A stretch of 64,000 nt of DNA from a bacterium (GCA_030433255.1 JAUIMI010000002.1:65177-129176), one strand, 5' to 3'; shown: positions 31,407 to 48,236, counted from the first letter of the stretch. Notes: a model not told the origin generated them from the letters alone. A program made the numbers and translations.

Positions 31407-32507
31407 TTATCTATTCATTGGCATTATTAAATAAAGAAATGAAGAATCCCCTACACTACGAATAACACATGGTTTATTTTTTTCAGTAAATGAAAAATTA
31501 ATACTATCGCCATGTAATGCTGGAAATGCATCTGATAAATATTTATGATTTAAATACATTTCAATATCTCCACCGGTAATAGCAGCATCAACAGAGGTAT
31601 CATTTTCTCCAACATCAGTATTACGGGAATGAATATGTAGTTGACCTTTTTGTGAATCTGTTTTAATCAGAATCTGATTAAAATTATCAGAAAAAACATT
31701 TACCAACCGAAGTGATTGTATAAGTTCATCTTTTAAAACAATACTATTTACCAATGATTCTTGTGGAATGATTTGTTTATAATCAGGGTAATTACCATCA
31801 ACAATACGTGAGGTAAAGTAAATATTTTCTGATTGAATAGATAATTGATTTTTCCCTATAGATAACTGAACAGAATCTGTAATACCATTAAATATTTTTA
31901 TACACTCTTGAATATTTTTAATAGGAATAATAACCCCTGAAATATCTAAGTTACCTTTTGTTACTATTCTTTTTTCAGCAAGTCTAAATGAATCCGTTGA
32001 AACAAAAACAAGTTCATTATTTTCACTGTAAATATATACACTTGATATTTCAGGTTTAATATCTGAAATAGAGGCACTATATACAACACTCTTAACACCA
32101 TCAAGAATCGTTTCAATAGGAAAATTAATTTCAGTAGCATCTTCTACTCGAGGTAGTGTTGGAAAATCAGCATGAGGGAATAATTTAATATTCATTTCTG
32201 ATTTCTCTGTTGAAATATGTAAGGTGTTTTCAATAACCTCAAAGGTAACATTATAATCACCCTGAAGAGAATTTATAATTTGACTAAAGACATCAAGTTT
32301 AACTGATAACTCACCTTCTTCTTTAATTTTTACTGGAATAGTTATTTCAACACCAACATGTAGATTGGTTGATCGAAGAGTGAGAATATTATCCCTTGCA
32401 ATAAGGAGAATATTTTCAAGTATTGGTAGACTTAAATTTTTTGCTGAAACTTTTTGTATACGAGATACAGCATCTTTAATTTTTTCAACGGTTGTTTCTA
32501 TTTTCAT
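31407..32507 (-). CDS. dnaN: DNA polymerase III beta sliding clamp
   Basis: Three-domain beta-clamp length (366 aa), N-terminus MKIETTVEKIKDAVSRIQKV, located downstream of dnaA. Confidence 0.85.
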   Translation of the reverse strand: MKIETTVEKIKDAVSRIQKVSAKNLSLPILENILLIARDNILTLRSTNLHVGVEITIPVKIKEEGELSVKLDVFSQIINSLQGDYNVTFEVIENTLHISTEKSEMNIKLFPHADFPTLPRVEDATEINFPIETILDGVKSVVYSASISDIKPEISSVYIYSENNELVFVSTDSFRLAEKRIVTKGNLDISGVIIPIKNIQECIKIFNGITDSVQLSIGKNQLSIQSENIYFTSRIVDGNYPDYKQIIPQESLVNSIVLKDELIQSLRLVNVFSDNFNQILIKTDSQKGQLHIHSRNTDVGENDTSVDAAITGGDIEMYLNHKYLSDAFPALHGDSINFSFTEKNKPCVIRSVGDSSFLYLIMPMNR

Positions 32508-32731
32508 AATATTAGTTAATTATATATAAAATATATTTATTATTACTATTAGGGTTGTTTATACTGTGGATTAGTTAAATACGTGTTTATATATAAGGAT
32601 TATTTAGGTTTTTTATATGTGGATAGGTAAGATGATATTTTGTTTATAATATAGATTTATACACAGGATAACTTACACCCTTGTGTATAAGAATAGTGTA
32701 TACACATTTTTTATATAAATTATTAACAGGT
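32508..32731. promoter_or_regulatory. candidate oriC (dnaA-dnaN intergenic): DnaA-box cluster plus AT-rich unwinding element
   Basis: 9-mers with at most one mismatch to TTATCCACA at 32566-32574, 32629-32637, 32658-32666 and 32682-32690; a TATATATAAAATATATTTATTATT tract. Confidence 0.5.
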
Positions 32732-34090
32732 TTATACATCAAGAATAGCTCTTATTTGTTCTATTTCTTGGGTAACATTAGGGTCATCTTTTATCATTTC
32801 TGTAACTTTTTCATAAGAATGAATTACTGTTGTATGGTCGCGACCTCCAATTTCCTTACCTATTGCTGGATACGAAATATTGAAATATTCTCGTAATATA
32901 TACATTGTTATTTGGCGTACATACACTATCTCTTTTTTTCTTGTTTTATCGTATATTTTCTGTGGGTCTAGTGTGTAAAAACCAGCTATTATTTTAATAA
33001 TTTCATCTAATGCAAGATGTTTTTTAGGTTTTATATTGTTTTTAATTAATGTTTTTACCTCATTAATAGATAGTTTTCGAGATCGTAATTCTGTTTGAAT
33101 ACTAATTGCATTTAATATACCCTCTAACTCTCTAATATTTCCTTCAAGGTTATTTGCTAAGAAATCAACCACTTCATCACTAATAGGTGTTTTCTTTTGC
33201 GTTGCTTTTGTTTTAAGGAGTGCAGCACGTGATTCGTAATCAGGTTTCGTTACATCAACAATCATTCCTGCAGAAAAACGTGATCGTAATCTATCTTCTA
33301 AACCAATAATATAATTAGGATGTTTATCTGAAGAAAAGATTATTTGTTTACCTTTGTCATAGAGAATATTGAATAAATGGAATAATTCTTCTTGTAGTTT
33401 TTCTTTTCCTGAGAAGAATTGAATATCATCCATAATAAGTACATCGTAAGCCCTGTATTTATTTTTAAAAGAATTAATACTATTGTTTTTTAAGGCATTT
33501 ACATAATCTTGAGAAAATTTTTCTGAACTTGTATAGAAAATATTAGTGTTTTCGTTGTCTTTATATATTTTATTCCCTGTTGCTTGTATTAAGTGAGTTT
33601 TTCCTAGTCCAGTTGATCCATAGATGAATAATGGGTTATATACACCAGGTTTTTTAATAATTGCTTGGGCTGCAGAATACGCAAGTTCATTAAAAGGCCC
33701 AACAACAAACGATTGAAATGAGTATTTCTCATTTAAGTTATTTGTTTTATTAATAGATATATTCTCTAAAGGAAGTGAATTACCTTGCTGTAGTATTGAT
33801 TGTGGTTGTTTGGTGGTATTAGTATCTTCTTTCTCAGTATTCTTCTTTTTTACAATATATTCAATGTTTTTAATAGAATTATCGAAATTTCGTAGTTTTT
33901 CTAAAATCATTTTATGAAATTTAGTATACAACCATTCTTTATTGAATTCATTTGGTACACCAATATAAAAAATAGAATCCTCTTGTTTTAGTGGGAATGT
34001 TTTTTTAAACCATGTGTTGAAGTTTGGTCGAGATATCTCAAGTTCAATTTCTGTTAATGTGTCTTTCCAGATTTTTTCAATAGTATTCAT
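32732..34090 (-). CDS. dnaA: chromosomal replication initiator DnaA
   Basis: AAA+ Walker A GSTGLGKTHL, Walker B VLIMDDIQF, sensor and C-terminal HTH (RDHTTVIHSYEKV). Confidence 0.9.
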   Translation of the reverse strand: MNTIEKIWKDTLTEIELEISRPNFNTWFKKTFPLKQEDSIFYIGVPNEFNKEWLYTKFHKMILEKLRNFDNSIKNIEYIVKKKNTEKEDTNTTKQPQSILQQGNSLPLENISINKTNNLNEKYSFQSFVVGPFNELAYSAAQAIIKKPGVYNPLFIYGSTGLGKTHLIQATGNKIYKDNENTNIFYTSSEKFSQDYVNALKNNSINSFKNKYRAYDVLIMDDIQFFSGKEKLQEELFHLFNILYDKGKQIIFSSDKHPNYIIGLEDRLRSRFSAGMIVDVTKPDYESRAALLKTKATQKKTPISDEVVDFLANNLEGNIRELEGILNAISIQTELRSRKLSINEVKTLIKNNIKPKKHLALDEIIKIIAGFYTLDPQKIYDKTRKKEIVYVRQITMYILREYFNISYPAIGKEIGGRDHTTVIHSYEKVTEMIKDDPNVTQEIEQIRAILDV

Positions 34091-34123
34091 AGTAGCAGTA
34101 TGTATGTGTATTATAATATGAAT

Positions 34124-34171
34124 GTGGAAAAAAGGGAAAACTTGTGAAAATAGGAATAAAGCTGTGGATAA
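34124..34171. promoter_or_regulatory. DnaA boxes upstream of dnaA (and of rpmH)
   Basis: A perfect TGTGGATAA (reverse complement of TTATCCACA) at 34163-34171 and TGTGGAAAA at 34124-34132. Confidence 0.5.
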
Positions 34172-34282
34172 GTTTTTTATATAAATGTATATGTTTACCT
34201 AGGTTTGTGTACAGTATCTTGATTATTTTTGTTATTGTATTAGTATAATTACATTAATTAAGTACTAATTTATTTATTAATT

Positions 34283-34429
34283 ATGAAAGCAAAATCACAA
34301 ACTCTTCGAAAGCGTAAAAATCGTTCAATGAAGAAAAAACATGGGTTCCTATCTCGAATGAAAACTGCTGGAGGGCGAAAAACTCTTTTAAATCGTTTAC
34401 GAAAAGGTCGTAAAAAATTAAGCGTTTAG
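34283..34429 (+). CDS. rpmH: 50S ribosomal protein L34
   Basis: MKAKSQTLRKRKNRSMKKKHGFLSRMKTAGGRKTLLNRLRKGRKKLSV (48 aa). It is too short for the ORF track, and the rpmH-rnpA synteny is classic. Confidence 0.85.
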   Translation: MKAKSQTLRKRKNRSMKKKHGFLSRMKTAGGRKTLLNRLRKGRKKLSV

Positions 34430-34477
34430 TTATAAAAAACCTTTATATAAAAGGTTTTTTATAATATATACATAGAT

Positions 34478-34792
34478 ATGTTTAAAAAATCCAAAAGAAT
34501 AAATTCTCGTGAATTTACTACTGTTTTTAAAAAAGGAAAAAAATCATTTTCTTCTTTTTTCCAAATAATTACTTTTGGAGGAGAGTGTAAGGTGGCTGTT
34601 GTTATATCAAAAAAGAAAATCAAAAAAAGAATTCAAAGAAATAGAGAAAAAAGAAGAATTCTTCATGTGATAAAAAAAATAACAGAACAATACCCTTTAT
34701 CTACAAATATGATTATTTTTCTTCAAAAAGATACTCAAAATCTTACCTTTAATGAATTAGAGGAAGAATTACTATATAGTATAAAAAAATAG
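34478..34792 (+). CDS. rnpA: RNase P protein component
   Basis: 104 aa, basic; the AVVISKKKIKKRIQRNREKRR motif matches RnpA, and the gene follows rpmH. Confidence 0.75.
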   Translation: MFKKSKRINSREFTTVFKKGKKSFSSFFQIITFGGECKVAVVISKKKIKKRIQRNREKRRILHVIKKITEQYPLSTNMIIFLQKDTQNLTFNELEEELLYSIKK

Positions 34793-34852
34793 AGGTGTAT
34801 CTCTATTTTTTTATACTATGTTCATAGATTGTAATTATGTTAGTATTTAATC

Positions 34853-35578
34853 ATGATTACTTTATGGAATACTTTTTTTTATAAACCACTTTACAACGCA
34901 CTTGTTTTTCTTGTTGATGTGGTACCAAATGAATCGCTATTTATTGCGGTAGTTATATTAACTATTATTGTTCGTTTTATTATTTCACCATTATCATATA
35001 AGGCACTTAAAACACAAATAAAAACAAAAGCCCTGCAACCAGAAATTAATAAAATCAAAGACACTATTTCTGATAAACAAGAACAAGCTCGAGCAACGTT
35101 TGCACTTTATAAGGAAAATGGAGTTAATCCTTTCTCAAGTTTCTTATTGATTCTTGTTCAATTTCCTATTATTATTGCTTTATATTGGGTGTTTCGAGAT
35201 GGAGGAGTTGAGATAGACCCAACGCTACTCTATTCATTTATTCCTGCACCTGAAAATATATCTTTAACTAGTTTTGGTATTAATTTAGCAGAAAAAAGCT
35301 ACCTCCTTGCTCTTCTTGCTGGTGTAACTCAATATATTCATATTTCTCGATCATCAAGTTTTAAACAAGTTGATACTGGGACTAAAAAAACCCAACAAGA
35401 AGAAATGATGGTAATGGTTGGTACCTCAATGAAATATACTATGCCTATTATGATTACTATTTTTGCTTATATTATTGGTGGTGCTGTTGCTTTGTATTGG
35501 GTAACATCAAATATTTTCATGATAGTACAAGAAACATTTATACAAAAGAAACTTGAAAATAAAAAACAAACCACATAG
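34853..35578 (+). CDS. yidC: membrane protein insertase YidC (short form)
   Basis: LQPEINKIKDTISDKQEQARATFALYKENGVNPFSS...QFPIIIALYWVF are conserved YidC/Oxa1 motifs; 241 aa. Confidence 0.75.
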   Translation: MITLWNTFFYKPLYNALVFLVDVVPNESLFIAVVILTIIVRFIISPLSYKALKTQIKTKALQPEINKIKDTISDKQEQARATFALYKENGVNPFSSFLLILVQFPIIIALYWVFRDGGVEIDPTLLYSFIPAPENISLTSFGINLAEKSYLLALLAGVTQYIHISRSSSFKQVDTGTKKTQQEEMMVMVGTSMKYTMPIMITIFAYIIGGAVALYWVTSNIFMIVQETFIQKKLENKKQTT

Positions 35579-35621
35579 TTTGTTTTTTATTTTGAATACA
35601 CAGCTATGTTATACTACAACT

Positions 35622-36086
35622 ATGAGCCCTGATATATTAAAAAAAGAAACCGAAACAATTCTTGGGATGATAAATATTTCATTTAAAGAAGTTGTAATTG
35701 TTATTGATAATGACATACGACTTACTATTATTTCAATTCGTGTACCAGGAAACGAAGAAGAATTGTTTACTGAAAACTATAATATATTAACGCGAGATTT
35801 AGGAACTATTATAAAACAACTCTTAGAAAAGAAGTATCATTTTTATAAAGATATTACCATAGATGTTAATGGTAATAATAGAAAATTTATAGAACAAGCA
35901 AAACAAAAAGCTCAAATAGCGGTAGAACGTGTTCAATTTTTTGATAAACCATATGAATTTGGGTACCTAAATTCATACGAACGAATGCTTATTCATTCAT
36001 ATTTAAAAAATGTTCCAAATATTATTACACAATCGGAGGGTGAAGGAAAAGACAGGCGTTTAATTATTAAAAAACAAACCATATAG
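35622..36086 (+). CDS. jag: Jag/KhpB-like RNA-binding protein (KH plus R3H)
   Basis: C-terminal R3H-like YERMLIHSYLKN...SEGEGKDRRLIIKK, and its position after yidC. The start is taken at the internal Met; the ORF track begins at 35553, overlapping yidC. Confidence 0.6.
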   Translation: MSPDILKKETETILGMINISFKEVVIVIDNDIRLTIISIRVPGNEEELFTENYNILTRDLGTIIKQLLEKKYHFYKDITIDVNGNNRKFIEQAKQKAQIAVERVQFFDKPYEFGYLNSYERMLIHSYLKNVPNIITQSEGEGKDRRLIIKKQTI

Positions 36087-36095
36087 GTTTGTTTT

Positions 36096-37946
36096 TTAAT
36101 TTACAAATTCAGTGTCTTCTGTGCTTGCTTTAAATTCTTCTTTTGCTTTTTTAATAGAAAGAACTTGCGCTGGGTCAGAGGTAATAATTTGATCTTCAGT
36201 GTATGAAGCAATAATTTTTACCGCAACATGTTTTAATCCAGCAAAGAATATTCCTTCCCCAACACTTGATTCAATAAGAAGATATTTTTCTTCATCAGTA
36301 AGTCGGAAAATTTCTTGAAGATTATCAACAGAACTTGGAGATTGTTTCAAGAGAAGTTGCATAGAAGAGTTTGTAATAATTGGCACACCATATTTTGATT
36401 TAATAAAATCACCAACGTCTTGAGTAATCGTAGATAGACCGAGGAAGTATTTACGTCCACGTTTTGCAATCATAAACAAGAATGATGCTGTATCATCAGA
36501 TTTCATCATCCACCATGCCTCATCAACAACAAGGAGTCGTTTTTTAAGATTTTTACGAACCGCATTCCAGATAAATGCTGTAATAATATACATTGCGGCT
36601 GGTTTAAGGTCGTCTTCCATATCTCGGATTGAAAATACAACAAGTTTTTTATTGATATCAACATTTGATGGTTTGTTAATAAAACCTGACCATGTACCAC
36701 GGGTGTATTTAGTAAGACGAGTTAGTAATGATTCACTTCCATCCATTGACGAAAGAATCATCTCAAAATCAGACATTAGTGGTGGTTCAATTTGTGAGTA
36801 GTCCGAATTCGGGGTTATATCCTTGAGTGCATATGTTTCAGTAATAGCTCTGTCGATAACAGAATCTTCTTCTGGTGTTAATCCACCTAACATAATTCTA
36901 AACAAACCAACGAGGTGAATAATATGTGTCCGCAAAACATCAGCAGGATCTTCATCAGAGAGAGGTGTTGGTACATCAAAAGGGTTAATATGATGCTCTG
37001 ATGATAGTGAGATATTAAAATACCGTCCTCCTACAGCTTCTGCAAGATATTCGTACTCACGTTCAGGATCAATAACAATCACTTCAGTATCAAACATCAT
37101 AGTCCGTAAAATCTCTAGTTTAGTAGCATATGATTTTCCTGCACCAGAGGTAGCAAAAGTCACTGAATTGTAGTTAGGGAGTGAATACCTATCAAAAATA
37201 ACTAAACCTGAATTATGTCTATTAATACCATAGAGGATACCTTTATTATCAGTAAGTTCTGATGAGATAAAAGGAAAGAATGACGAGACAGGACCTGTGT
37301 TGAGTTTTGTGTGTACTTGGAGCTTATCATCCCCTATTGGAGCAACTGACATAAATCCTTCCATTTGTTGGAAAAGAGCCGGTTTTAAATAAATAAGTTT
37401 AGATTCCAGAAGAGAACGAATTTCATTTTCTGTTTTAAATAACTCATCCTCATCTTCTGCATAGATAGTAATATACAACCCAACAGAAAATATTTTTTCT
37501 TGAGCTTGTTGCAATGAATCACGTAATTGTTCTAAATCTCTATACGCAGTATCTAAAATAGGATCTCGTACTAACCCTTTTGATTCACGAAGGTTTATTT
37601 GAGATTGTACTTCAGCTACTTTTTTCTTAAACTCAGAGAGGATTTTTTCTGTTGGGATAGGGTGTACATGAATCCCAATATCAAATACCTTGTCCAAGTT
37701 TACAATAGGAGCTAGCCATCCATCTGTTAAGAATCGAGGGTACGACATTACAAAAAAAGTTCGTGAAGTTTTCCCTGCAATTTTAATTGATTTAGAACTA
37801 ATCTCTAATGCTGCCGGTGCTAAAATATCACGTAATTGTAATTTTGCAGTACGATATATTTCTCCTGGAAGAACAGGAACAGCTGTTTTTTTAATTTTTT
37901 CGTTTTCAGGTTTTGTTGTCCCTAATAAATCTGTAAATAATGACAT
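36096..37946 (-). CDS. VirB4-family type IV secretion ATPase, C-terminal ATPase body (Tn916 Orf16 / TcpF / PrgJ-like)
   Basis: Walker A ATSGAGKSYATK; Walker B VVDEAWWMM (the DEAW that is typical of VirB4); RGRKYF...TQ motifs. The N-terminal region SRTFFVMSYPRFLTDGWLAPIVNL...IHVHPI matches the pre-ATPase domain of Gram-positive VirB4s. Confidence 0.65.
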   Translation of the reverse strand: MSLFTDLLGTTKPENEKIKKTAVPVLPGEIYRTAKLQLRDILAPAALEISSKSIKIAGKTSRTFFVMSYPRFLTDGWLAPIVNLDKVFDIGIHVHPIPTEKILSEFKKKVAEVQSQINLRESKGLVRDPILDTAYRDLEQLRDSLQQAQEKIFSVGLYITIYAEDEDELFKTENEIRSLLESKLIYLKPALFQQMEGFMSVAPIGDDKLQVHTKLNTGPVSSFFPFISSELTDNKGILYGINRHNSGLVIFDRYSLPNYNSVTFATSGAGKSYATKLEILRTMMFDTEVIVIDPEREYEYLAEAVGGRYFNISLSSEHHINPFDVPTPLSDEDPADVLRTHIIHLVGLFRIMLGGLTPEEDSVIDRAITETYALKDITPNSDYSQIEPPLMSDFEMILSSMDGSESLLTRLTKYTRGTWSGFINKPSNVDINKKLVVFSIRDMEDDLKPAAMYIITAFIWNAVRKNLKKRLLVVDEAWWMMKSDDTASFLFMIAKRGRKYFLGLSTITQDVGDFIKSKYGVPIITNSSMQLLLKQSPSSVDNLQEIFRLTDEEKYLLIESSVGEGIFFAGLKHVAVKIIASYTEDQIITSDPAQVLSIKKAKEEFKASTEDTEFVN

Positions 37947-38023
37947 AACTACTTATAGTATACTACATTCAGTATAATTGATTAATTTTTTTTATGAAAA
38001 AACCTTGAGTAATCTCAAGGTTT

Positions 38024-39673
38024 TTAAAAATCAACAAGTCGGTAAGACCACAAAAATTCAGTTGTTTTATCGATAAAGTAAAGGTATTCATTTTTTTCAT
38101 CAATATCTATAAACTCTACATCAATTGATTCATTATAATCAGTGTTAATATCTGTAATGACTGTTTCTTCTAGTGTTTCTACGTCAATTTTCCATAATGA
38201 ATCTGTATATGTTTCAAGTCCTTGATACCAAATATCAGGATATTCTTCTCCATATGCCATTGAATTTGGAACAGCGCAATATAAATACTTACTATCACTT
38301 GTCCACACACATTTTTCAACAAAGGTTTGGATAGTTAATGGTCGTGTTCTATTAGAGTCTCTGTTGTGGATTGATAAACGTGTTGAGCTATCAATTGATT
38401 CCATAACAAGAACATTTTCATTGTCTGGGCTTCCTAGTGATGTTAACCCTTTTCGTTCCTTTAATGATTTAAAATAACGGCCAGTATCAGCATTGAGTTG
38501 GTAGCTAAACCCATCTGCAGCATAACTTGGTTTTGTGGTAATTTCTATTGAATCAATATTATTCCATGAAGCTAACCATTCAGAGAATGGAGATTCAAAA
38601 ATCGTTTCTTTGGTTTCATTTACAAGGCTTCTAATAATACCAACAACACCAGCAGCATCTTTTTGCAAATAGAACACCTCTTCACCATTTGGGTTTATTG
38701 TAATTTGGGTAATATTTTGTGGTAAGAAAAATCCAGAGATTTTATATTTATGTTCAAGTTGTTCAAATGCTTCTTTTGCAATTCTTTCTTGTTGTATGTT
38801 ACACACCTCAAGCATTTTTGCGCGAGTTCCTGGTCCTATGGTCCCATCGATATCAATTTGATATAAACTTTGGAAATTTTTAATTCCGGTTATAGTTGCT
38901 TCAGTTGCAAGAGATGATTCGTTTCCAGGAGAGTTGATTCCAGAACGTGCAATACGTGTTTGGGGAATCCTATTTAAAAATTGATGTAGTTCAATCACAT
39001 CTTTGCTATCATCACCCACTTCCACATTAACAAACTCAAATGGGCAAGGTTCAATAGAGAGAGCTAATTTTTCAATATTTGCTAGATATGTTTCAGGTAC
39101 ACGCTCTTCTTTGTTCCAGTATTGAAAGAGCGCTCTATTACCATTTTTATTGAAATAAGCGTATTCTGCATTTGGTATAAAGTTTTCAACCAATAATTCA
39201 CTCTCAATTTCTGAAGGTGTTACTTTTGATTCATGGATATTAGCATTTGCAATCTCACTATAACGAACGTATTGATTTTCAACATCAATCACCTTGATTG
39301 TTTGCAATGTATTACCTTCTTCATCAATCTCAATATCAGTTACCTCCTTTTCTTCAGTTCGAATTATTGGTGTAAATCCTCCAGTTGGGAAATTACTGAT
39401 TTGTCGTAGTCGTGGACCTTCTACTTCTGGTTCGGTTATATCAACAGTTTCCTGTCCTCCATTTTCAGGATCTTCTCCTCCGAGTGTTCCTTGGTTGTTT
39501 CCACTTGGATTTTGTCCGGTATTGATTATTTCACCAAAAGGAAAAAGGTTTTGTGCCGTTTCAGTTACCTCAGTTCGTTCTTCTTGATTAAGAAAAACAA
39601 AAAACCAAATCCCAGCAATTACAAGAATAAGAATGATTATTGCAATAATTATTTTCCGAGTATTAAGCTTCAT
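38024..39673 (-). CDS. membrane-anchored protein with a peptidoglycan-binding-like domain
   Basis: N-terminal TM; LHQFLNRIPQT...ITGIKNFQSLYQIDIDGTIGPGTRAKM resembles PG_binding_1; 549 aa. Confidence 0.4.
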   Translation of the reverse strand: MKLNTRKIIIAIIILILVIAGIWFFVFLNQEERTEVTETAQNLFPFGEIINTGQNPSGNNQGTLGGEDPENGGQETVDITEPEVEGPRLRQISNFPTGGFTPIIRTEEKEVTDIEIDEEGNTLQTIKVIDVENQYVRYSEIANANIHESKVTPSEIESELLVENFIPNAEYAYFNKNGNRALFQYWNKEERVPETYLANIEKLALSIEPCPFEFVNVEVGDDSKDVIELHQFLNRIPQTRIARSGINSPGNESSLATEATITGIKNFQSLYQIDIDGTIGPGTRAKMLEVCNIQQERIAKEAFEQLEHKYKISGFFLPQNITQITINPNGEEVFYLQKDAAGVVGIIRSLVNETKETIFESPFSEWLASWNNIDSIEITTKPSYAADGFSYQLNADTGRYFKSLKERKGLTSLGSPDNENVLVMESIDSSTRLSIHNRDSNRTRPLTIQTFVEKCVWTSDSKYLYCAVPNSMAYGEEYPDIWYQGLETYTDSLWKIDVETLEETVITDINTDYNESIDVEFIDIDEKNEYLYFIDKTTEFLWSYRLVDF

Positions 39674-39907
39674 AAATGTACCTCTAGTATATCACTTTTT
39701 CTTTTTTCAAACGAAAAAAGAAACAAAAAAGTTTCCAAATTCATGGTTACTTTCTTAAAAATATAGCTCATGTACTATAATTTTAAAACTCGCTTCGCTC
39801 AAACATTAAAATTATTACGTACATATCACGTCATTTTTATAGAAAATAACCATAGATTTGAAATAAAAATAAAGTGCTCGCTTTCGCTCGTACTCTACAA
39901 TCTAAAA

Positions 39908-39936
39908 TAAAAAACAACTACCTAGTTGTTTTTTAT
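39908..39936. terminator. intrinsic terminator
   Basis: ACAACTA-cc-TAGTTGT plus T-run. Confidence 0.45.
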
Positions 39937-42047
39937 AATGTTAATGATTCTGTTACCTTATCATAAACTGAGAAATGCCAGTTTGTAGCATGGGTTACAT
40001 ATTTAATCATACATTTATCAATACCCCTGTTGAATAATTCATTTTGCATGCTTTCATAAGCAGATTGAGATTGTTGATTTGAAAATTCGAACTGAGCAGT
40101 TAAACCATTTTCATCAGCAGTTTTTATTATTTTTTCTACAGTATCAACATTATATTGAGCATTTTGCGTTGCAAGGTCTATACAAGAACCTAAATAATGA
40201 CATGGTGACCCATGACCCAGGAATGATGGACCAAAAGCTTCTGTAACACGCGTACTTATGTTTTGTGATTCTAGTGCATTATTAAAATTAATAATTTTTT
40301 GAGCAAAAGAAGACTCAACGTTATTTTGTATACTTGTTCCTTGAGGTGTTCCAGTATCTAAGTTTATTCCATTACCTTCAAGAGAACTTAAATTACCTCC
40401 TTGAGCCACTTGTTGTATTGTTGCAAGTTTATGTGTTGTTTGTCCTTTCCAATACCCTCTATGTTTTCTATTGTTACATATTTGTGTAGCAGGTGCGTTT
40501 GATACTGATAAGTTGGTACCATCACCATCAACTTGTGCTGGGTCTTCTACAATATTAATACTTACTTCTTCAATACCTTGTCCGAAATTAATTTCAAGCA
40601 ATTTCGGATTAATAGTTTTAAGGATAAGGAATATTCCTAATGCCAAAATAAGACCGGTTACTGCACTCATGATTCGTTTCTTTGCGGCACCTTTTGAGTA
40701 TATAGCTTCTGTTGTCATATATTCTACCCCAGCAACTACAATCATAATAACTGAAAGAACCATCAATACACCAAGAGCAATATTAAATAGTGATTGAATA
40801 TATTCACCTAATTGGAAATCTTTTAAATTTCTAATTGCAACTCTTTGTACGTTTCCATTTCCATCCACGACAGTTTCAACGTCACCAGACTGAGAGGTGA
40901 ATCCAGGAATAGGTGCTAGAAATTCGTAACAATTATCGCTATAACCTTCTGATTGGCTAATAAAACAAGGGCTATTTACATCATATGTTGGTTGTTGTGT
41001 TTGAGTGTATTGTGCCGAAGAACTTCCGTTTGAGTTTGTTGAACCCACTAGATTACTATTAATTCTTTGCCACTCAATATTATCACATCCATTTGGCCCA
41101 CAACGAAAATTTATAGCATTTTCATTATTTGGTGTATCTATTACATCATTATCATATTTTTTTATTTTTATACCTGGTAAATTTTCAGAACTTACTCGTA
41201 CAATTGCACCATAGGTACATGAATCAACTCCATCTGTTGAGCCAGTACAATCAGTATCTCCAGGTATATAGGTATTTTTTATTTCAGTTTCTCCTTGTGG
41301 AAGTTTTCCTTCATAACGAGCTTCTTCTGCTTCTTCATCTGCCCCATCATAATCCCATATTTCAACCGTAAATATAATTTCAGAAGCACAGTTGTTTGTT
41401 TGTATGTTTAATTTAACGTCAGATTGTTGCTCTGGGTTTAAAAAAGGTGTTGATGATTCATTTTGTGTACCATGTGGGACAAACGTAACATCTGTAATTT
41501 GACAGTTGTTAAGTAATGTTTGTGTTTGGTTTGCATTATAATTTCCGGTTACGCTAATTACTTCAAATTCTTGTTCCTCATCACAGTCCCCACATGTAGT
41601 CTCAAGTCGAGCTGCGTTTATTTCTGCATCGGTATTAAAAAAAGAAGATGTACCTTCTGGATCTGATGAAAGATTTTGTAGGTAAGCGGATTCAAAGGTT
41701 ACATAATACAAACAATTCTCATCGTCACAATATTCATTTCCAGGTTTAAAAGTAACAACAAGTGGTTCATTCGTTGAATTAAATTGATATCCATATTGTT
41801 CAAAAACATTATCGTCAACACCTCCACTTTCATCTTCCTCAATTATCAGAGTAAATGGTACTCCATCACATTGCCCGTTTTGATTAACATGTAGTTGTAT
41901 TGTTGAGTCTGGAGTAAGTTGACCTGATGGTTTTTCAAAGTAAATACTCTCAATTTGACAATTTTCTTGAGCAAAAATAGTTTGACTTCCAAATCCTCCA
42001 AAAACAAAAAGAGTAATAAATAAAATAGATTTAAGTAGTTGTTTCAT
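39933..42047 (-). CDS. secreted 704-aa protein with an internal VirB2/TrbC-like two-TM hairpin and a C-terminal Cys/His domain
   Basis: Signal peptide; FNIALGVLMVLSVIMIVVAGVEYM - basic loop SKGAAKKR - IMSAVTGLILALGIFLILK is a pilin-like hairpin; the C-terminus is GHGSPCHYLGSC... Confidence 0.4.
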   Translation of the reverse strand: MKQLLKSILFITLFVFGGFGSQTIFAQENCQIESIYFEKPSGQLTPDSTIQLHVNQNGQCDGVPFTLIIEEDESGGVDDNVFEQYGYQFNSTNEPLVVTFKPGNEYCDDENCLYYVTFESAYLQNLSSDPEGTSSFFNTDAEINAARLETTCGDCDEEQEFEVISVTGNYNANQTQTLLNNCQITDVTFVPHGTQNESSTPFLNPEQQSDVKLNIQTNNCASEIIFTVEIWDYDGADEEAEEARYEGKLPQGETEIKNTYIPGDTDCTGSTDGVDSCTYGAIVRVSSENLPGIKIKKYDNDVIDTPNNENAINFRCGPNGCDNIEWQRINSNLVGSTNSNGSSSAQYTQTQQPTYDVNSPCFISQSEGYSDNCYEFLAPIPGFTSQSGDVETVVDGNGNVQRVAIRNLKDFQLGEYIQSLFNIALGVLMVLSVIMIVVAGVEYMTTEAIYSKGAAKKRIMSAVTGLILALGIFLILKTINPKLLEINFGQGIEEVSINIVEDPAQVDGDGTNLSVSNAPATQICNNRKHRGYWKGQTTHKLATIQQVAQGGNLSSLEGNGINLDTGTPQGTSIQNNVESSFAQKIINFNNALESQNISTRVTEAFGPSFLGHGSPCHYLGSCIDLATQNAQYNVDTVEKIIKTADENGLTAQFEFSNQQSQSAYESMQNELFNRGIDKCMIKYVTHATNWHFSVYDKVTESLTL

Positions 42048-42109
42048 GTTGTTATTATAATATGTTTACTCTTTGATATAAAGTCGTAAAAATAAAAACA
42101 CCCTTTTGT

Positions 42110-43132
42110 TTAGAGTGTTTTTGGGTTAAATACCAGTTCTAAGTTTGCTTGAGATTTTTGTAATAACTTCTCAATCCCTTCTAGTGCAATATTTATATCA
42201 ACCGCACCAGCTTCTCCTCCTGATGTTATATATAACTCATTTTGTTTTTCAAAATCTTGTGGTGGCTGAGGGTTGTTATTAATACTCCAGTTTACAAACA
42301 GATCTATAAAATTAGGCTGAACCGATGACATGTATAATGGATGGAACGATAGTTTAACGGTATCACCATTAATAACATTATTAGTATTAAGCGCTTTATT
42401 TGTCATAAGCCTATCACCATTGAACTCATAAAAGAGAATTTTAGGTTTATATACATCTGTTGGAATATCAATAGTATTTGTAGCAAATGAGTTTTCACGT
42501 CTATCATTTGAAGTAACAGTAATTTTTTCATTTACTCCTAATGGGTCAGCGGTAAACTCAAATGATTGCTTCCCAAAACCTGATCCTGATTGTTGTCTCG
42601 TATAATTTCTGTCCCAATAATAAATAAGATTTGGTGCATCAGATGGTTCAATAAGTAGTGTTTCTGGTATAGCGGTGATTTTAATTTGGGATTGTTGCAT
42701 AGGAAGTGCCTTTCCTTTGTAAAAAGGTGGAACATAAGCATCAGTTACCTCCCACAGCAGGTTTACCTGTGATGGAGCAAAACGTAACTCTTTTCTAAAA
42801 ACTTGATTCTCGTATTCGACAACAGCTGTAATGTTCGTCACTTCTCCAGAATTACCTGTCGTAAAAATATAATCACGGTTACCATAATCAGCTGACTTTC
42901 TTTCTCCGTTTTCAAACCACGCAATGTAATAGTTATTAAGATTGAAACTATAACTATTAAGTTTTAGTTTTACCTCTTCGTTTGGTCCTGGTATTTTTGG
43001 TGTTGTTTCAACAAAAATATCATCAGCAGAATAGAGTTGAAAATTTTGCGCAACAGTTGTATTTGGAATTACAAAAAAGCTGAGAACCAGAACAGCAAAA
43101 ATAACTATATGATTTTTCCATACATGCAACAT
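42110..43132 (-). CDS. membrane-anchored secreted protein, possible VirB8/TcpC-like component
   Basis: N-terminal TM followed by a 300-aa extracytoplasmic domain. Assigned by position within the cluster only. Confidence 0.3.
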   Translation of the reverse strand: MLHVWKNHIVIFAVLVLSFFVIPNTTVAQNFQLYSADDIFVETTPKIPGPNEEVKLKLNSYSFNLNNYYIAWFENGERKSADYGNRDYIFTTGNSGEVTNITAVVEYENQVFRKELRFAPSQVNLLWEVTDAYVPPFYKGKALPMQQSQIKITAIPETLLIEPSDAPNLIYYWDRNYTRQQSGSGFGKQSFEFTADPLGVNEKITVTSNDRRENSFATNTIDIPTDVYKPKILFYEFNGDRLMTNKALNTNNVINGDTVKLSFHPLYMSSVQPNFIDLFVNWSINNNPQPPQDFEKQNELYITSGGEAGAVDINIALEGIEKLLQKSQANLELVFNPKTL

Positions 43133-43195
43133 ATTCTTTCTGTATTATACGGTATTCACAAAAAATCTACCAATAAAAAAACGCATACATGCGAA

Positions 43196-43867
43196 TTATT
43201 GTTCAAGTGTTGGAATATTTCTATGTGTTTCTCCTGGATTAAACATATTATAGAATACTTCAATGGCTTGTTCTGTGTTCAGTTGTTCGGAACGTACACC
43301 AAACCGTGATAAGCCACCTTTTACAATCGCAACACGTTGTTCTAGTTGACTTCGTTGCTCCTCAAATTTACGAGAATCTTCTTTAAATGAAGATTTTTTA
43401 GAACTCCCACCAATGAGTTCTTTTAGAATATTACCACCCTTTTTTTCTTGAGTACCAGTAAACGCACCTCCTGAGTATGGAATTACTACATAGAATTTTT
43501 TAGACATGATATTTACTGAATCAGTAAACCATTTAATAAATTCAATATACTCTTTGGTTTGTAGTCGAAGAAGTTCTTCTTGTTGTTGTTCGATTCGTCT
43601 TTCGAGTGTTAGGAGATATGGTTTTATATCATATCGACGTGATTGTACCGATATCTCAATAGGAAACTCTATTGAATTTAAAAAACCTTGGAATTGCATA
43701 ACAATTGCCTGTTGTTCATCTGGTGATTTTAGTGCGATATTGATTGCCGAAGCAAGTAGTATAGCTCGCAAACTTCCGTCTTCTAGTACGACAATACCGT
43801 CACGAATTTCTTTTACTGGAATAAAATCTTGAGTTCTTGGTCCTGTATATTTTTTAATATCTGCCAT
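43196..43867 (-). CDS. protein resembling the N-terminal domain of Gram-positive VirB4 ATPases (a split VirB4?)
   Basis: IRDGIVVLEDGSLRAILLASAINIALKSPDEQQAI...FPIEISVQSRRYDI resembles the TKDGRYVKILEV-PINF-LRS--EQ signature at the start of Tn916 Orf16/TcpF-type VirB4. Recalled from memory, no search run. Confidence 0.4.
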   Translation of the reverse strand: MADIKKYTGPRTQDFIPVKEIRDGIVVLEDGSLRAILLASAINIALKSPDEQQAIVMQFQGFLNSIEFPIEISVQSRRYDIKPYLLTLERRIEQQQEELLRLQTKEYIEFIKWFTDSVNIMSKKFYVVIPYSGGAFTGTQEKKGGNILKELIGGSSKKSSFKEDSRKFEEQRSQLEQRVAIVKGGLSRFGVRSEQLNTEQAIEVFYNMFNPGETHRNIPTLEQ

Positions 43868-43905
43868 ATATGTTTCTAGTATACCTTAATTATTATTTCA
43901 AATAA

Positions 43906-43934
43906 ATAAAAAACTACATCATGTAGTTTTTTAG
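43906..43934. terminator. intrinsic terminator
   Basis: AACTACAT-c-ATGTAGTT plus T-run. Confidence 0.45.
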
Positions 43935-44347
43935 TTATCATCAAAATCCAAAATATCCAAACTCCAAGCTAAATCTGAAATTTTTTGATGACCATCTTCT
44001 TTTGGGAGAGCTCCTTCTTGTGGGAAGGCAGCGTGTACTTGGGTTACGTCTTGTGCACCTGGTTCTGGTTCATGCTGTCTCCATAAATAAAATTTATTTG
44101 TAAAGGTGTATACAATAAATGACTCAACCATATGAATAAAAGGTCTTCCGTTAGGTTTGTAAAATACCAAGGCAAGAGAAAAAGCCGCAATAGGTAACCC
44201 TAATAGAATAGATGCAAAACTTGGTAATAATTTATGTAGTACAAAAATCATTCCTCCTCCACCAACAAGATATAACGCCTGTTTAAAAGTAAAAGGTCCA
44301 AATAATTTGTCAGGAATATTAATAAATTGAGGTACCTCAAATCTCAT
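43931..44347 (-). CDS. PrgI/VirB3-like small two-TM protein
   Basis: N-terminal VPQFINIPDKLFGPFTFKQALYLVGGGGMIFVL matches the fGLT-RQ pattern of the PrgI family; 138 aa; immediately upstream of the VirB4-N-like ORF, as in Tn916 (orf17-orf16). Confidence 0.4.
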   Translation of the reverse strand: MRFEVPQFINIPDKLFGPFTFKQALYLVGGGGMIFVLHKLLPSFASILLGLPIAAFSLALVFYKPNGRPFIHMVESFIVYTFTNKFYLWRQHEPEPGAQDVTQVHAAFPQEGALPKEDGHQKISDLAWSLDILDFDDN

Positions 44348-44394
44348 ATCGTTATTATATCATGTTCAAAATATTTAGATAAAAAAGAAGACCT

Positions 44395-45279
44395 CTAATC
44401 TTCTTTTGTTAAATGTTCTAAGAATGTACCTTCTTCTCGTATTTGCTCGTTTTCAGATAATGAAGCTTCTATGGTTTCTGTTTTTGCAGAGAAAGGGTTT
44501 TCCAAAATATGTTTATCAATGGTAGAAAATTCATAATCACCTTGACCTAAATCAGGAAATTGTTTTCTGGGTTTGTCTGTAAATATATCGTCAGGTGTAT
44601 TATGATGTTGTGTTTTAATAATTGAGGTGTTAGTGCGGTGTCCGGTTATTCCTCTTAAATCTTTGGTATCGATTGGTTCTTGGTATGGGTTTTGTGTGTG
44701 TTCAGGTTTTTGATTTGGCTCAGGTATATCATCTGTAATAGTTTCGGTGTGGGTGGTTTCGTGATCTTTGATATTTACCTCGTTTAAAATTGCTGATACT
44801 TCATCATGTAAATCATTGTCAAAAATACGTGGCTCAGGTTCATCTACGAGATGTACTCCTTCTGAACTTAGGATGTTTTTTAGTTCATGATGTTCAATTG
44901 GTTCTTGGTATGGATCATCTGATATTATTTCATCGTGGTTCTCGGTAGTTGTTTCATTATCAAAATTATTTTTACTAAATGCACGTTTTTGTAATTGAAG
45001 AAATATTCGAGAATTTGCTTCGTCTACTAATGAAGCTGCAAGTTGTTTTGAAAAACCGAGTTCACTTACAAGGTTATGTTCATACTGTTCTGCAGGTATT
45101 TTCCCAAGAATTACTAAGAGTGTTTGGTGCCGAAATTCGTCTGCATCGTCTATTTGCATATTGTGTTCATGAGCAATATCAAGTATTTCTTTTGCCCAAT
45201 CAAAAGTAATTACAGCATTTTTAATATTATCAGGAAGTGCTGCAATTGATTGTTGAATTTCTGCATTCGAAAGTTTCAT
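44395..45279 (-). CDS. highly acidic cytoplasmic protein with PYQEPI repeats
   Basis: 294 aa, rich in Asp and Glu; DDPYQEPIEHHELK and QNPYQEPIDTKDLR repeats. Confidence 0.35.
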   Translation of the reverse strand: MKLSNAEIQQSIAALPDNIKNAVITFDWAKEILDIAHEHNMQIDDADEFRHQTLLVILGKIPAEQYEHNLVSELGFSKQLAASLVDEANSRIFLQLQKRAFSKNNFDNETTTENHDEIISDDPYQEPIEHHELKNILSSEGVHLVDEPEPRIFDNDLHDEVSAILNEVNIKDHETTHTETITDDIPEPNQKPEHTQNPYQEPIDTKDLRGITGHRTNTSIIKTQHHNTPDDIFTDKPRKQFPDLGQGDYEFSTIDKHILENPFSAKTETIEASLSENEQIREEGTFLEHLTKED

Positions 45280-45330
45280 ATCAGTAGTATACCAAATATT
45301 ATAAGAAAAAATAAAAACCTATTTAGGTTT

Positions 45331-47637
45331 TTATTTTTTATCAGCCTCTTGAGGTTTTGCACCAACTTTACCTTCCCGTATTCTTTGAGCTGTTTTTTCA
45401 TCTTTTGTTTCGTAATCTTTAGCAACTTTTTCTCTGGCTATATTATGATTATCTTTTTCAATATTCTTAAGTCTCTCAACTTGTTTCTTGGCTGTTTGTT
45501 TTTCGAAGTCTTTTTTATCTTTTTCAAGATCAGAAAGACCATCTTCCAAAGCGGTTATATTTGCCTGAGCATAGGATGCCAGTGCTGTGTTACCTTCCGC
45601 ATTTGCTTTTGCAAAAATACGTTCTTCTTGCTTAATTTCTTTTTGTTTATCTTTAATATCCTTATCGTAGGCTTTTATAGCTTTGTCTTCAAATTGAGCT
45701 CTACTACTTCCTGCAGGAATATTTGCTACATTTCCACCGCCCATACTTGGAGGTAGTGGAGCGCCATCAATTTGCATATTTACTGTTGGCTCTGCACTAA
45801 CATTAACCACCACAGATTGTGACATTTCTTTTCGTATGTCTTTTGCAAACTGTTCAAGTGTTCGTTCTTTATCATCAATATCTGAATCAAGTTTTTGTTT
45901 CGCTAGTTTTGATTCTTCGGTTTTGATTTCTGAATTAGCATTTGTATCTTTTACTTTTTGTTTAGATTCTTCAACCTCTCTTTGCCAATCAGCAGCTGTT
46001 TTATTTTCTTTGATTTCAGTCTGCGCTTCTTCCTGAACTCGTTTTACTTTTGCAGCCTGTAGGTCAGCATATTCATTTCCTCCGCCCATAGAACCAAGTA
46101 ATGATTTACCATCACCTTCAATATGGCCAAGTAATGATTTACCTGTAACTTTTCCTGCATATTTCGCAGCGTCATCACCCATAATTGATTTTAGAACTTT
46201 ATTTCGTGTTGGGTCTATTCTTGTTGCTTGTAGGTATTTCCCATGTTCTTTAACTGCTGAACCAATAGTGCTCAACCCTTTACCATATTTACCTTTTGAT
46301 AGGTACTTTGCTCCTTGCCCTACACCTTGTGCTGCTGCTCCACCAACACGTAACCCTGTACCAACAGCTGCTGCTCCACCGGTTGCAGCGATAGCTGCTC
46401 CAGCAACAAGTGCTCCTGTAACACCCTGAATACTTCTTGTTGCCATGCTTCCTAACTCACCAGCCATTGAGGTACTTATTTTTTTTGTGAGAAATAACAA
46501 ACCACCAACAATAATAAATGGTATATAAGCCTTGAGGATGCTTTCTAATATACCTTCTCCTGGGCCTGGTTGAATAGATGCAAGGAAACCTTCATTTCCA
46601 AGAAAACTAATAACAAGGTATAGGAAAAACATATATACAGGAGCAAGAAACGCTAAGCTTATTAATTCAGGAAGCCATTTGTTAAATCCTATGTATGATT
46701 TGTTTTGTAGGCTTGGTACCACAATACTTGCAAAAGCAACAGGGGCTAATATTGCAGAAACCATTAAACCAATTGCTCTACCAACAAAAACAAGAATCAT
46801 ACTAATAAATAACCAAATGAGTAATATGTTTAATATTCCTGCTCCTGTGATGATAATAAAGGCTTGCAGTGCCCCAGAACCACTTGCGTTAACTATTTGT
46901 TGAGGATTTATTTTCCCAGCAATAGCAATCGAGAGATTTTTTGAATCTTGAGGAATAATAGATTGCGCTAGGCTAGAGAGACTACTTTCTCCTGAACCTA
47001 ACCCTTCGGTATCATTAGCTATTTGAGTAGTATCCGCATTCGTATTTGTTGCTGCTGTGTTGTATGTATTCGCTGTTGCGTCTATTTTGTTGTATAAGGT
47101 GTGCGCTAGAATATTTGACCCATCAATAATTGCATAGGTCATAAATAAACTAAAATTAATAATCAACGCTATAAGGATTGTTTTTACGAGAGTTTTTTTT
47201 GTTCCTCCATCATCGGAACCAAGAACCATTTTGAATGCTACAACTAGTAATGCAAAAATAAACACAATATTAGTAAAGTCACGTAATATTTCCCAACCAG
47301 CTTCGATAAGACCTGATCGATAGAATTGTGAATCAATTGATAGGAATATAAATATATCCAACATGACACCAATTAATACAACAACTATTTGGGTAAAATA
47401 GAAAATTATAAGTTCATAGAATGACAATAATCCTTCTGATAATTGACACCCTATTCCACTTGCACCAAAAAAACCAGTGTCACAATTAAGGTTTATAGCA
47501 TAAGCCGTATTTTCTGTTATCGAAACTATCTGTTCTCCTGATTGAATAGATTCGATATCGTTGATTCCAATACTTATAGGTAAAAGAAAAACGAGTATTC
47601 CTAATAATACTGTAATTGCTTTTTTAGATAAAAACAT
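45331..47637 (-). CDS. VirB6/TrbL-like polytopic membrane protein with a Gly/Ala-rich linker and a long charged coiled-coil C-terminus
   Basis: Signal peptide, at least six TM helices (aa 70-400), GALVAGAAIAATGGAAAVG segment, then about 300 aa of Lys/Glu-rich repeat. This architecture is like Tn916 Orf15 and TrbL. Confidence 0.45.
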   Translation of the reverse strand: MFLSKKAITVLLGILVFLLPISIGINDIESIQSGEQIVSITENTAYAINLNCDTGFFGASGIGCQLSEGLLSFYELIIFYFTQIVVVLIGVMLDIFIFLSIDSQFYRSGLIEAGWEILRDFTNIVFIFALLVVAFKMVLGSDDGGTKKTLVKTILIALIINFSLFMTYAIIDGSNILAHTLYNKIDATANTYNTAATNTNADTTQIANDTEGLGSGESSLSSLAQSIIPQDSKNLSIAIAGKINPQQIVNASGSGALQAFIIITGAGILNILLIWLFISMILVFVGRAIGLMVSAILAPVAFASIVVPSLQNKSYIGFNKWLPELISLAFLAPVYMFFLYLVISFLGNEGFLASIQPGPGEGILESILKAYIPFIIVGGLLFLTKKISTSMAGELGSMATRSIQGVTGALVAGAAIAATGGAAAVGTGLRVGGAAAQGVGQGAKYLSKGKYGKGLSTIGSAVKEHGKYLQATRIDPTRNKVLKSIMGDDAAKYAGKVTGKSLLGHIEGDGKSLLGSMGGGNEYADLQAAKVKRVQEEAQTEIKENKTAADWQREVEESKQKVKDTNANSEIKTEESKLAKQKLDSDIDDKERTLEQFAKDIRKEMSQSVVVNVSAEPTVNMQIDGAPLPPSMGGGNVANIPAGSSRAQFEDKAIKAYDKDIKDKQKEIKQEERIFAKANAEGNTALASYAQANITALEDGLSDLEKDKKDFEKQTAKKQVERLKNIEKDNHNIAREKVAKDYETKDEKTAQRIREGKVGAKPQEADKK

Positions 47638-47731
47638 GACTATATTATAGTATAGAATGATTCTTTTTCATAAAATAAAACTACCAATCTCAAAGACTGG
47701 TAGCTATGTACATAAATTATAATTCTTGAAT

Positions 47732-48115
47732 TTAATTTGAAGCGATAGTATTGTTTTGTTTTTCTATAATGTAAGATTTGATGTAATTAAGTAATAAATT
47801 AACTTTTTTATACTGAACCACTTCAACATTCTCAACATTTTTTTTATGAAAATCATTTAAAGAACTAACTAGTAAAAAATTTTCTTTTTCTTTTGTTTGA
47901 ATTCTTACATATAGTTTGTTTTCCAAAACCTTCATTTCAACTGCTGCTGCTGTTGGTTTCTCTGCAAAAACTTCACTAGTAAATTGTTGAATGTCTAATT
48001 TTGTTATTTTTTCTTGTGCGTTTACTGTATTTGTACCTAGTACAAAAGCAAACATAAATACGAAAATTAAAAATAATTTTTTCATGGTATTAAGTTTTGT
48101 GTTGCTCTTGTGCAA
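47732..48115 (-). CDS. small secreted protein (127 aa)
   Basis: Signal peptide MKKLFLIFVFMFAFVLGTNTVNA. Confidence 0.4.
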   Translation of the reverse strand: MHKSNTKLNTMKKLFLIFVFMFAFVLGTNTVNAQEKITKLDIQQFTSEVFAEKPTAAAVEMKVLENKLYVRIQTKEKENFLLVSSLNDFHKKNVENVEVVQYKKVNLLLNYIKSYIIEKQNNTIASN

Positions 48116-48236
48116 CGGTTGTGGGCATTATTGCCTATGTTTGTATAAATTATGACACACTTTTTCCAATTTTGTAAATTAAGTTATCCACAGAAATAGA
48201 ACAACTTAAAATAAAAAAACAACCATATGGTTGTTT

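Follow-up and report, generated by a model that had tools for sequence, protein, structure and literature searches.

A VirB4 motor probably encoded by two non-adjacent genes in an origin-proximal type IV secretion cluster of the Patescibacteria type

The 64,000-nucleotide stretch of bacterial DNA analysed here (GCA_030433255.1, JAUIMI010000002.1:65177-129176; hereafter the window) is low in GC, at about 27-37%, and carries a same-strand cluster of type IV secretion system (T4SS) genes that spans 51290 down to 36096 on the minus strand. Two open reading frames (ORFs) of this cluster, encoding proteins of 223 and 616 amino acids (aa), are the subject of this report, and their sequences lead us to consider it very probable, at roughly 85%, that they encode a VirB4 motor in two pieces, with the 223-aa protein completing the N-terminal domain of the 616-aa protein in trans. 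Our translations bore out an earlier note on this DNA in placing both ORFs on the minus strand at the coordinates below, in finding ORFs of 340, 704 and 549 aa between them and in the motifs that it quoted, and no second copy of either VirB4 piece is found in the 64-kb window. The genes on which the argument turns are as follows.

43931..44347, minus strand: 138-aa PrgI/VirB3-like membrane protein (PF12666 PrgI), directly upstream of the TrsD-like gene
43196..43867, minus strand: 223-aa TrsD-like protein, annotated as PF26593 'TraC-like'; first half of the N-terminal domain of VirB4 as a separate polypeptide
42110..43132, minus strand: 340-aa conserved cluster protein with an N-terminal hydrophobic segment, first intervening gene; no Pfam/NCBIfam match
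39933..42047, minus strand: 704-aa protein with a VirB2-like T4SS pilin domain (PF18895), second intervening gene
38024..39673, minus strand: 549-aa protein with a weak peptidoglycan-binding domain (PF01471), third intervening gene
36096..37946, minus strand: 616-aa VirB4 body (PF19044, NF045971)

The 616-aa protein is recognizable as the greater part of a VirB4, with TFFVMSYPRFLTDGWLAPIVNL...IHVHPI, a Walker A motif (SGAGKSYATK) and a Walker B motif (LLVVDEAWW) in its translation and with PrgI (PF12666) and a T4SS_pilin domain encoded in the same-strand cluster around it. It matches P-loop_TraG (PF19044) with an expectation value (E) of 2.8e-25, the CD1110 VirB4 profile NF045971 over positions 183-732 of 752 (E 5.7e-111; 372.1 bits, above the 325-bit cut-off) and the profile NF045975 (VirB4_plasma, the VirB4 of mycoplasma integrative and conjugative elements) over positions 292-893 of 894. 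Residues 229-589 match the VirB4 C-terminal domain of PDB entry 4AG5 (E 1.2e-41) and mark the approximate extent of the RecA-like ATPase domain, and because that domain starts only near residue 229, the stretch before it, from residue ~38 to 228, makes up the second half of the N-terminal domain. The description of this protein in the earlier note as the ATPase body is thus right as regards the Walker motifs and the 4AG5 match and too narrow as regards residues ~38-228. PrgJ of pCF10, itself annotated by the Prokaryotic Genome Annotation Pipeline as a CD1110-family VirB4, shares with residues 66-570 of the 616-aa protein an alignment (E 5e-40) that begins only at its own residue 254 and runs to 772; this offset means that ~190 residues at the N-terminus of PrgJ, preceding a YP-R/K-xL block common to both proteins, are missing from the 616-aa protein. 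The latter also leaves profile positions 1 to about 182 unmatched and so does not hold a complete N-terminal domain; it is the 223-aa ORF that encodes this part.

The 223-aa protein contains IRDGIVVLEDGSLRAILLASAINIALKSPDEQ and aligns with the N-terminal part of the VirB4 profiles, covering positions 1-118 of 752 in NF045971 (E 2.5e-7) and positions 102-233 of 894 in NF045975 (E 2.5e-10). On the CD1110 profile the two proteins are therefore collinear and do not overlap (1-118 versus 183-732), which is the coverage that the earlier note had anticipated. The 223-aa protein also matches the TrsD/TraD profile NF041427 over positions 20-141 of 201 (E 1.3e-5), and since its 25.2 bits fall far under the 200-bit cut-off we regard it as a remote homologue of TrsD/TraD and not as a member of that family. 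A precomputed PF26593.2 'TraC-like' annotation is attached to the database protein of identical sequence (P0001) and to each of the 120 homologues listed, and PF26593 is also annotated at the N-terminus of a fused VirB4 of 797 aa. Searched against 1.84 billion representative proteins, the 223-aa query gave 2,244 matches, and stand-alone homologues of about 215-230 aa number more than 2,000; among the best 150 of the 2,244 nearly all are small, mostly about 200-260 aa with some extended to about 440 aa, and the two long proteins have 797 and 898 aa. The nearest homologues all come from metagenome-assembled genomes of Patescibacteria (the candidate phyla radiation), namely Paceibacteria, Campbellbacteria or Nomurabacteria. 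Some TrsD-like homologues of 300-445 aa (for example P0156, P0195, P0219 and P0226) have a C-terminal extension of 100-220 aa, which is too short for a VirB4 body, the homologous part being N-terminal.

Fused relatives join the two pieces in a single polypeptide. The 797-aa protein P0259, from another Patescibacterium, matches the 223-aa protein over its residues 7-210 at 35% identity (E 4e-45), and from residue 230 to residue 796 it is 53% identical to the stretch 38-603 of the 616-aa protein; the body of the 898-aa protein P0207 aligns with the 616-aa protein likewise. The P0259 locus is syntenic and origin-proximal, with the order PrgI, fused VirB4, Jag/R3H, YidC, RnpA, DnaA, DnaN and a penicillin-binding protein (PBP). 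When P0259 was used as the query, 118 of the 120 best clusters were proteins of 775-807 aa with both PF26593 and P-loop_TraG, and those fused-form clusters among the best 120 whose source is named come from Ca. Colwellbacteria, Parcubacteria or simply Patescibacteria. A 600-aa 'short' VirB4 from the fused-VirB4 clade (P0289, locus L086) was considered as a recent clean split and rejected, as its N-terminal domain bears a deletion of ~100 residues and a frameshift.

Structure prediction adds a link to a VirB4 of known structure. Searches of PDB sequences with the 223-aa protein (phmmer) and with its 70-sequence profile (hmmsearch) returned nothing relevant. The AlphaFold2 model of the 223-aa protein, built from the 70-sequence alignment, is confident and compact (predicted local distance difference test, pLDDT, 87.5; predicted template modelling score, pTM, 0.77), and when it was compared with the PDB by Foldseek the top 14 matches were all R388 TrwK/VirB4 chains, at probability 1.00 and with template modelling scores of 0.43-0.54 normalised to the query, followed by matches with probability at most 0.23 and E-values of at least 0.26. 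The C-terminal-domain-only structures 4AG5 and 4AG6 were not matched by this model in the Foldseek search. The predicted link of the 223-aa protein to TrwK thus appears at the level of the modelled fold only and not by PDB sequence search. For the fused protein, the model can be aligned with full-length TrwK over its whole length (E 1.4e-27; 865 columns, 799-residue chain), and it also matches 4AG5/4AG6. Profile coordinates, the P0259 alignment and the TrwK fold matches all place the 223-aa protein where the earlier note had put it and nowhere else: it corresponds to the opening ~200 residues of the VirB4 N-terminal domain, and it probably belongs to the TrsD / PF26593 family.

The orthologous loci that the earlier note had proposed to compare show how the two pieces are arranged elsewhere. 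Our sample comprised 80 loci from one-genome-per-species contigs and three contig look-ups, with the cluster genes located by tblastn, and both VirB4 pieces were present in 75 of the loci surveyed, in these arrangements.

Split, adjacent: 67 of 75 loci; a stop codon between the genes, median gap 13 nucleotides
Split, separated by 5-7.5 kb: 6 of 75 loci; gene order as in the window
Inverted: 1 of 75 loci (L011, 2699-13450); block of PrgI, TrsD-like and 340-aa genes flipped relative to the rest of the cluster
Fused: 1 of 75 loci (L003)

The 67 adjacent loci have the order PrgI, TrsD-like, VirB4, 340-aa, pilin and 549-aa, and their TrsD-like proteins are 52-59% identical to that of the window. 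Identities of 70-85% in the six separated loci identify these as the window's own clade, and in two further close relatives (L004 and L007) the separated order begins before the contigs end. Because the separated state is confined to this clade, we take it to be a local, clade-specific rearrangement that came after an older split. In 74 of 78 loci the gene immediately upstream of the TrsD-like gene on the same strand is that for PrgI, from which it follows that the rearrangement kept the PrgI-TrsD pair. The earlier note had thought a split with intervening genes unusual for this ATPase; the split itself is in fact old, widespread and published, and it is only the non-adjacency that is uncommon (six separated loci and one inverted among the 75, all in the window's clade).

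A split VirB4 of this kind also has parallels outside the Patescibacteria. The staphylococcal plasmid pGO1 (TrsD/TrsE) and the pIP501-type plasmids (TraD/TraE) pair a small cytoplasmic homologue of the VirB4 N-terminus (~200-220 aa) with a short VirB4 of about 620-670 aa. The systems represented by NF041427 (pGO1 TrsD/TrsE and the pIP501-type TraD/TraE) are conjugative, whereas that of the window is chromosomal and its two genes are non-adjacent. A Pontibacillus megaplasmid (Bacillota) encodes a small TrsD-like protein (274 aa) and then a 621-aa VirB4 annotated to the CD1110 family, and Clostridium perfringens pJFP838A encodes PrgI, a TrsD-like protein (312 aa) and a short VirB4 (641 aa). In PrgJ of pCF10 and in TrwK of R388 (PDB 7O41 and 8RTD), by contrast, both parts form one polypeptide, which in the window is covered jointly by two proteins; TrwK shares only 12-16% sequence identity with them. 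The earlier note had likened the 223-aa protein to the start of Tn916 Orf16/TcpF-like VirB4 proteins and had proposed alignments to PrgJ as well. The comparison with PrgJ holds for the 616-aa protein through the alignment described above and does not extend to a significant match between the TrsD-like profile and the PrgJ sequence; the match of that profile to TcpF was not significant either, the significant match of the 223-aa protein being to the CD1110 family profile.

The closest published counterpart is the T4SS of Patescibacteria described by Quinonero-Coronel et al. 2025 (Microb Genom; PMC12102498). Of all T4SS components in Patescibacteria, the authors find TrsD to be the most abundant (2,272 homologues, 1,664 of them in the vicinity of virB4); they tabulate component positions relative to virB4 in Fig. 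4, list a TrsD homologue as essential in Ca. Southlakia epibionticum and call TrsD remotely homologous to the VirB4 N-terminus, attributing this to Guglielmini et al. 2014, whose main text makes no mention of TrsD. That system shares with the window the type of organism, a chromosomal cluster by dnaA, the set of VirB4, TrsD, PrgI and pilin, and a candidate VirB6-like protein. The passages used here treat TrsD as a component without assigned function and do not describe the fission/fusion polymorphism of VirB4 or the separated order; the window differs from what they contain in that its TrsD-like gene lies three genes away from virB4, and fused forms at the syntenic locus are shown here.

Several observations weigh against a two-piece VirB4. 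At 25-39 bits, the scores of the 223-aa protein are low beside the NCBIfam curated whole-protein cut-offs of 200-590; a local Pfam hmmscan of it did not return PF26593, presumably for want of that model in the local copy, the assignment coming from the precomputed annotation; and hhalign comparisons of the TrsD-like profile with the single sequences of PrgJ and TcpF were not significant, the top PrgJ alignment, itself insignificant, falling at residues 47-95, the place expected for an N-terminal piece. The AlphaFold2 model of the fused protein is moderate (pLDDT 72, pTM 0.51), and its inter-domain geometry is unreliable. At two loci of the window's clade (L009, 9500-10639, and L013, 1775-2927) PrgI is divergent from the TrsD-like gene, and these contigs are without virB4 over 10 kb and 2.3 kb upstream, respectively, and about 4 kb downstream. 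At L086 (1282-3458) an otherwise fused VirB4 has the ~100-residue deletion and frameshift in its N-terminal domain noted above, frame 1 encoding the equivalent of P0259 residues 1-89 and frame 3 that of residues 193-796, a lesion that could be either an assembly error or real decay of the domain. Together L009, L013 and L086 could mean that the N-terminal piece is functionally more independent, or more dispensable, than half of an enzyme would be.

These loci bear on the alternative that the TrsD-like protein descends from the VirB4 N-terminus and is now an autonomous T4SS subunit whose main partner is PrgI/VirB3; it might serve as a membrane adaptor, say, or help in assembly, with a stoichiometry or regulation of its own, and would not complete every VirB4 protomer. 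The PrgI-TrsD pairing in 74 of 78 loci, set beside the loss of TrsD-VirB4 adjacency in the window's clade, is what such a subunit would predict, as are the L009 and L013 contigs, on which no other cluster gene accompanies PrgI and the TrsD-like gene, and the deleted N-terminal domain of L086 would suit a semi-autonomous adaptor. Unequal stoichiometry is also conceivable, given that VirB3 in R388 is bound by the central VirB4 subunits alone (PMC9259494). Fused forms are nonetheless abundant at the syntenic locus, where they fix the stoichiometry at 1:1, and the TrsD-like sub-domain is wholly absent from the VirB4 body, so that we judge an autonomous subunit to be unlikely; it differs from a VirB4 completed in trans mainly in degree.

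Far less probable is that the 616-aa protein is a VirB4 complete by itself, still possessing the domain of which the 223-aa protein would then be a paralogous duplicate. By eye a beta-hairpin-like motif opens both conserved cores (IRDGIVVLEDGSLRAILL in one and IKIAGKTSRTFFVMSYP in the other), but profile-profile comparison by hhalign of the TrsD-like profile with the first 230 residues of VirB4 bodies found no similarity (probability 0.3%), which means that the 616-aa protein has no copy of the TrsD-like domain of its own, the VirB4 family profiles all match it from profile position 183 or later, and fused relatives and PrgJ have about 190-230 extra N-terminal residues; we accordingly rejected an internal duplication. 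That the split is an artefact or pseudogene, the N-terminal piece being a non-functional remnant of frameshifting, misassembly or VirB4 decay, is hardly credible, for although L086 shows that an N-terminal domain can be found deleted and frameshifted in an otherwise fused VirB4, here 5.2 kb and three conserved genes separate the ORFs, which no frameshift explains, both ORFs are intact and in the same order in six relatives that have them on one contig and are highly conserved across independent assemblies (the 223-aa protein at 70-86% identity, the 616-aa protein at 86-92%), and the more than 2,000 stand-alone homologues and the confident, compact model of the 223-aa protein speak for a real product.

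We therefore favor a VirB4 completed in trans. Homology to the N-terminal domain and the conserved PrgI-TrsD pair make it most likely that the 223-aa protein serves as the first half of that domain, and physical association of the two proteins and their function in trans are what we infer from the homology, collinearity and gene-order distribution observed. The 223-aa protein would bind the 616-aa protein non-covalently and so rebuild a complete VirB4 N-terminal domain. By analogy with R388, where VirB3 wraps the VirB4 N-terminal domain (residues 15-400), where this domain alone provides the contact of central with outside VirB4 subunits and where it contributes to the hexamer interfaces (PMC9259494), the rebuilt domain may dock onto PrgI/VirB3 at the membrane, as the covalent domain of TrwK does, and may mediate contacts within the VirB4 oligomer. 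Through binding to both the 616-aa protein and PrgI, the 223-aa protein would thereby anchor and organise the motor at the membrane. As to how the present order arose, a rearrangement in the window's clade may have inserted the 340-aa/pilin/549-aa block between the two pieces, or else moved virB4 to the end of the cluster, leaving PrgI beside the TrsD-like gene. In the Colwellbacteria-type lineage the two pieces are fused.

The remainder of the cluster and the genes beyond it complete the setting.

48237-51290, minus strand: 1017-aa protein at the cluster head; no family match
47732-48115, minus strand: 127-aa protein at the cluster head; no family match
45331..47637, minus strand: 768-aa polytopic membrane protein, candidate VirB6-like channel subunit by position and hydrophobic profile only
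44395..45279, minus strand: 294-aa conserved cluster protein; no Pfam/NCBIfam match
34853-35578: yidC-like ORF
32732-34090: dnaA-like ORF
31407-32507: dnaN-like ORF

The last three were assigned from their translations and from the Pfam-annotated syntenic genes in L001-L003, as was a class A PBP-like gene that also lies just below the T4SS region. The T4SS cluster (36096-51290) abuts a set of replication-origin genes at 31407-36086 (dnaN, dnaA, rnpA-like, yidC and jag/R3H), and this synteny is repeated in L001-L003 and L086. The origin-proximal position agrees with the location given in PMC12102498, in which T4SS clusters of Patescibacteria are said often to adjoin dnaA, and the component set of these systems (VirB4, TrsD, PrgI/VirB3 and a VirB2-like pilin) lies entirely within 36096-44347 on one strand. 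The region is a chromosomal, origin-proximal MPF_FATA-like T4SS cluster typical of Patescibacteria. Pfam and NCBIfam scans, limited to ten cluster proteins, found no match to a relaxase or VirD4 among those ten. A scan of the cluster for promoters and terminators gave 61 promoter-like signals against 74 in shuffled sequence and 8 terminator-like signals against 7.9, counts at or below the shuffled expectation and so uninformative on operon structure.

Among the individual cluster proteins, the 138-aa protein matches PF12666 PrgI above the gathering score (E 3.1e-8). The 768-aa protein has no significant family match in the Pfam and NCBIfam scans, and its orthologue is kept upstream of PrgI in most related loci; in many loci a gene at the equivalent position conserves the N-terminal ~100 residues of the 294-aa protein. 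An orthologue of the 340-aa protein occurs in nearly all related loci, after VirB4 in those of the adjacent type and before VirB4 in the window's clade. In the 704-aa protein the pilin domain occupies residues 413-475 between large N- and C-terminal extensions, with matches to PF18895 T4SS_pilin (E 2.5e-5, its 24.7 bits narrowly missing the cut-off of 26.6) and to the Mbov_0395 pilin-like profile NF045849 (E 2.9e-5), and it is only this region that is conserved in distant relatives. The ~400-aa N-terminal region of the same protein is Cys-rich and repeated-looking (NCQIE.../NCQIT...), and a C-terminal domain of ~220 aa follows the pilin domain; the pilin gene is small in more distant relatives (136 aa in L002), and the 681-aa orthologue in L001 has a weak NLPC_P60 match. 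The 549-aa protein is conserved across related loci and matches PF01471 PG_binding_1 below the cut-off (E 1.3e-3), and its 522-aa orthologue in L002 carries a precomputed PF01471 match. At the position equivalent to the 1017-aa protein of the cluster head L001 has a gene for 960 aa, for which reason the 1017-aa and 127-aa proteins may be conserved T4SS-associated surface or secreted proteins.

In terms of novelty, the split, and the identity of TrsD/PF26593 as a VirB4 N-terminal homologue that is ubiquitous in Patescibacteria T4SSs, are already published and held in domain databases, and the spacing between the two pieces is a minor clade-specific variation in gene order; our finding re-derives the TrsD/VirB4 relation from raw sequence and carries little weight as a discovery. 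Its modest added value lies in a series of fused, split-adjacent and split-separated states at one origin-proximal locus, with the PrgI-TrsD pair conserved throughout, which constitutes a natural experiment on which contacts of the VirB4 N-terminal domain matter. A bolder and rather doubtful extension is that this sub-domain is a detachable module across Patescibacteria, whose fused, adjacent and separated states have interconverted repeatedly and which in split lineages serves as an adaptor, expressed separately and tied genetically to PrgI/VirB3 and not to the ATPase. If true, the motor could be loaded onto its membrane platform sub-stoichiometrically or under regulation; we know of no VirB4 shown to be under the control of a separate N-terminal adaptor. 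Our results support annotating "hypothetical" proteins of ~220 aa in these genomes as the VirB4 N-terminal subunit, and because the T4SS of epibionts is reported in PMC12102498 and PMC12857230 to be essential for growth on the host, a correct assignment of this subunit aids structural and genetic work on that system.

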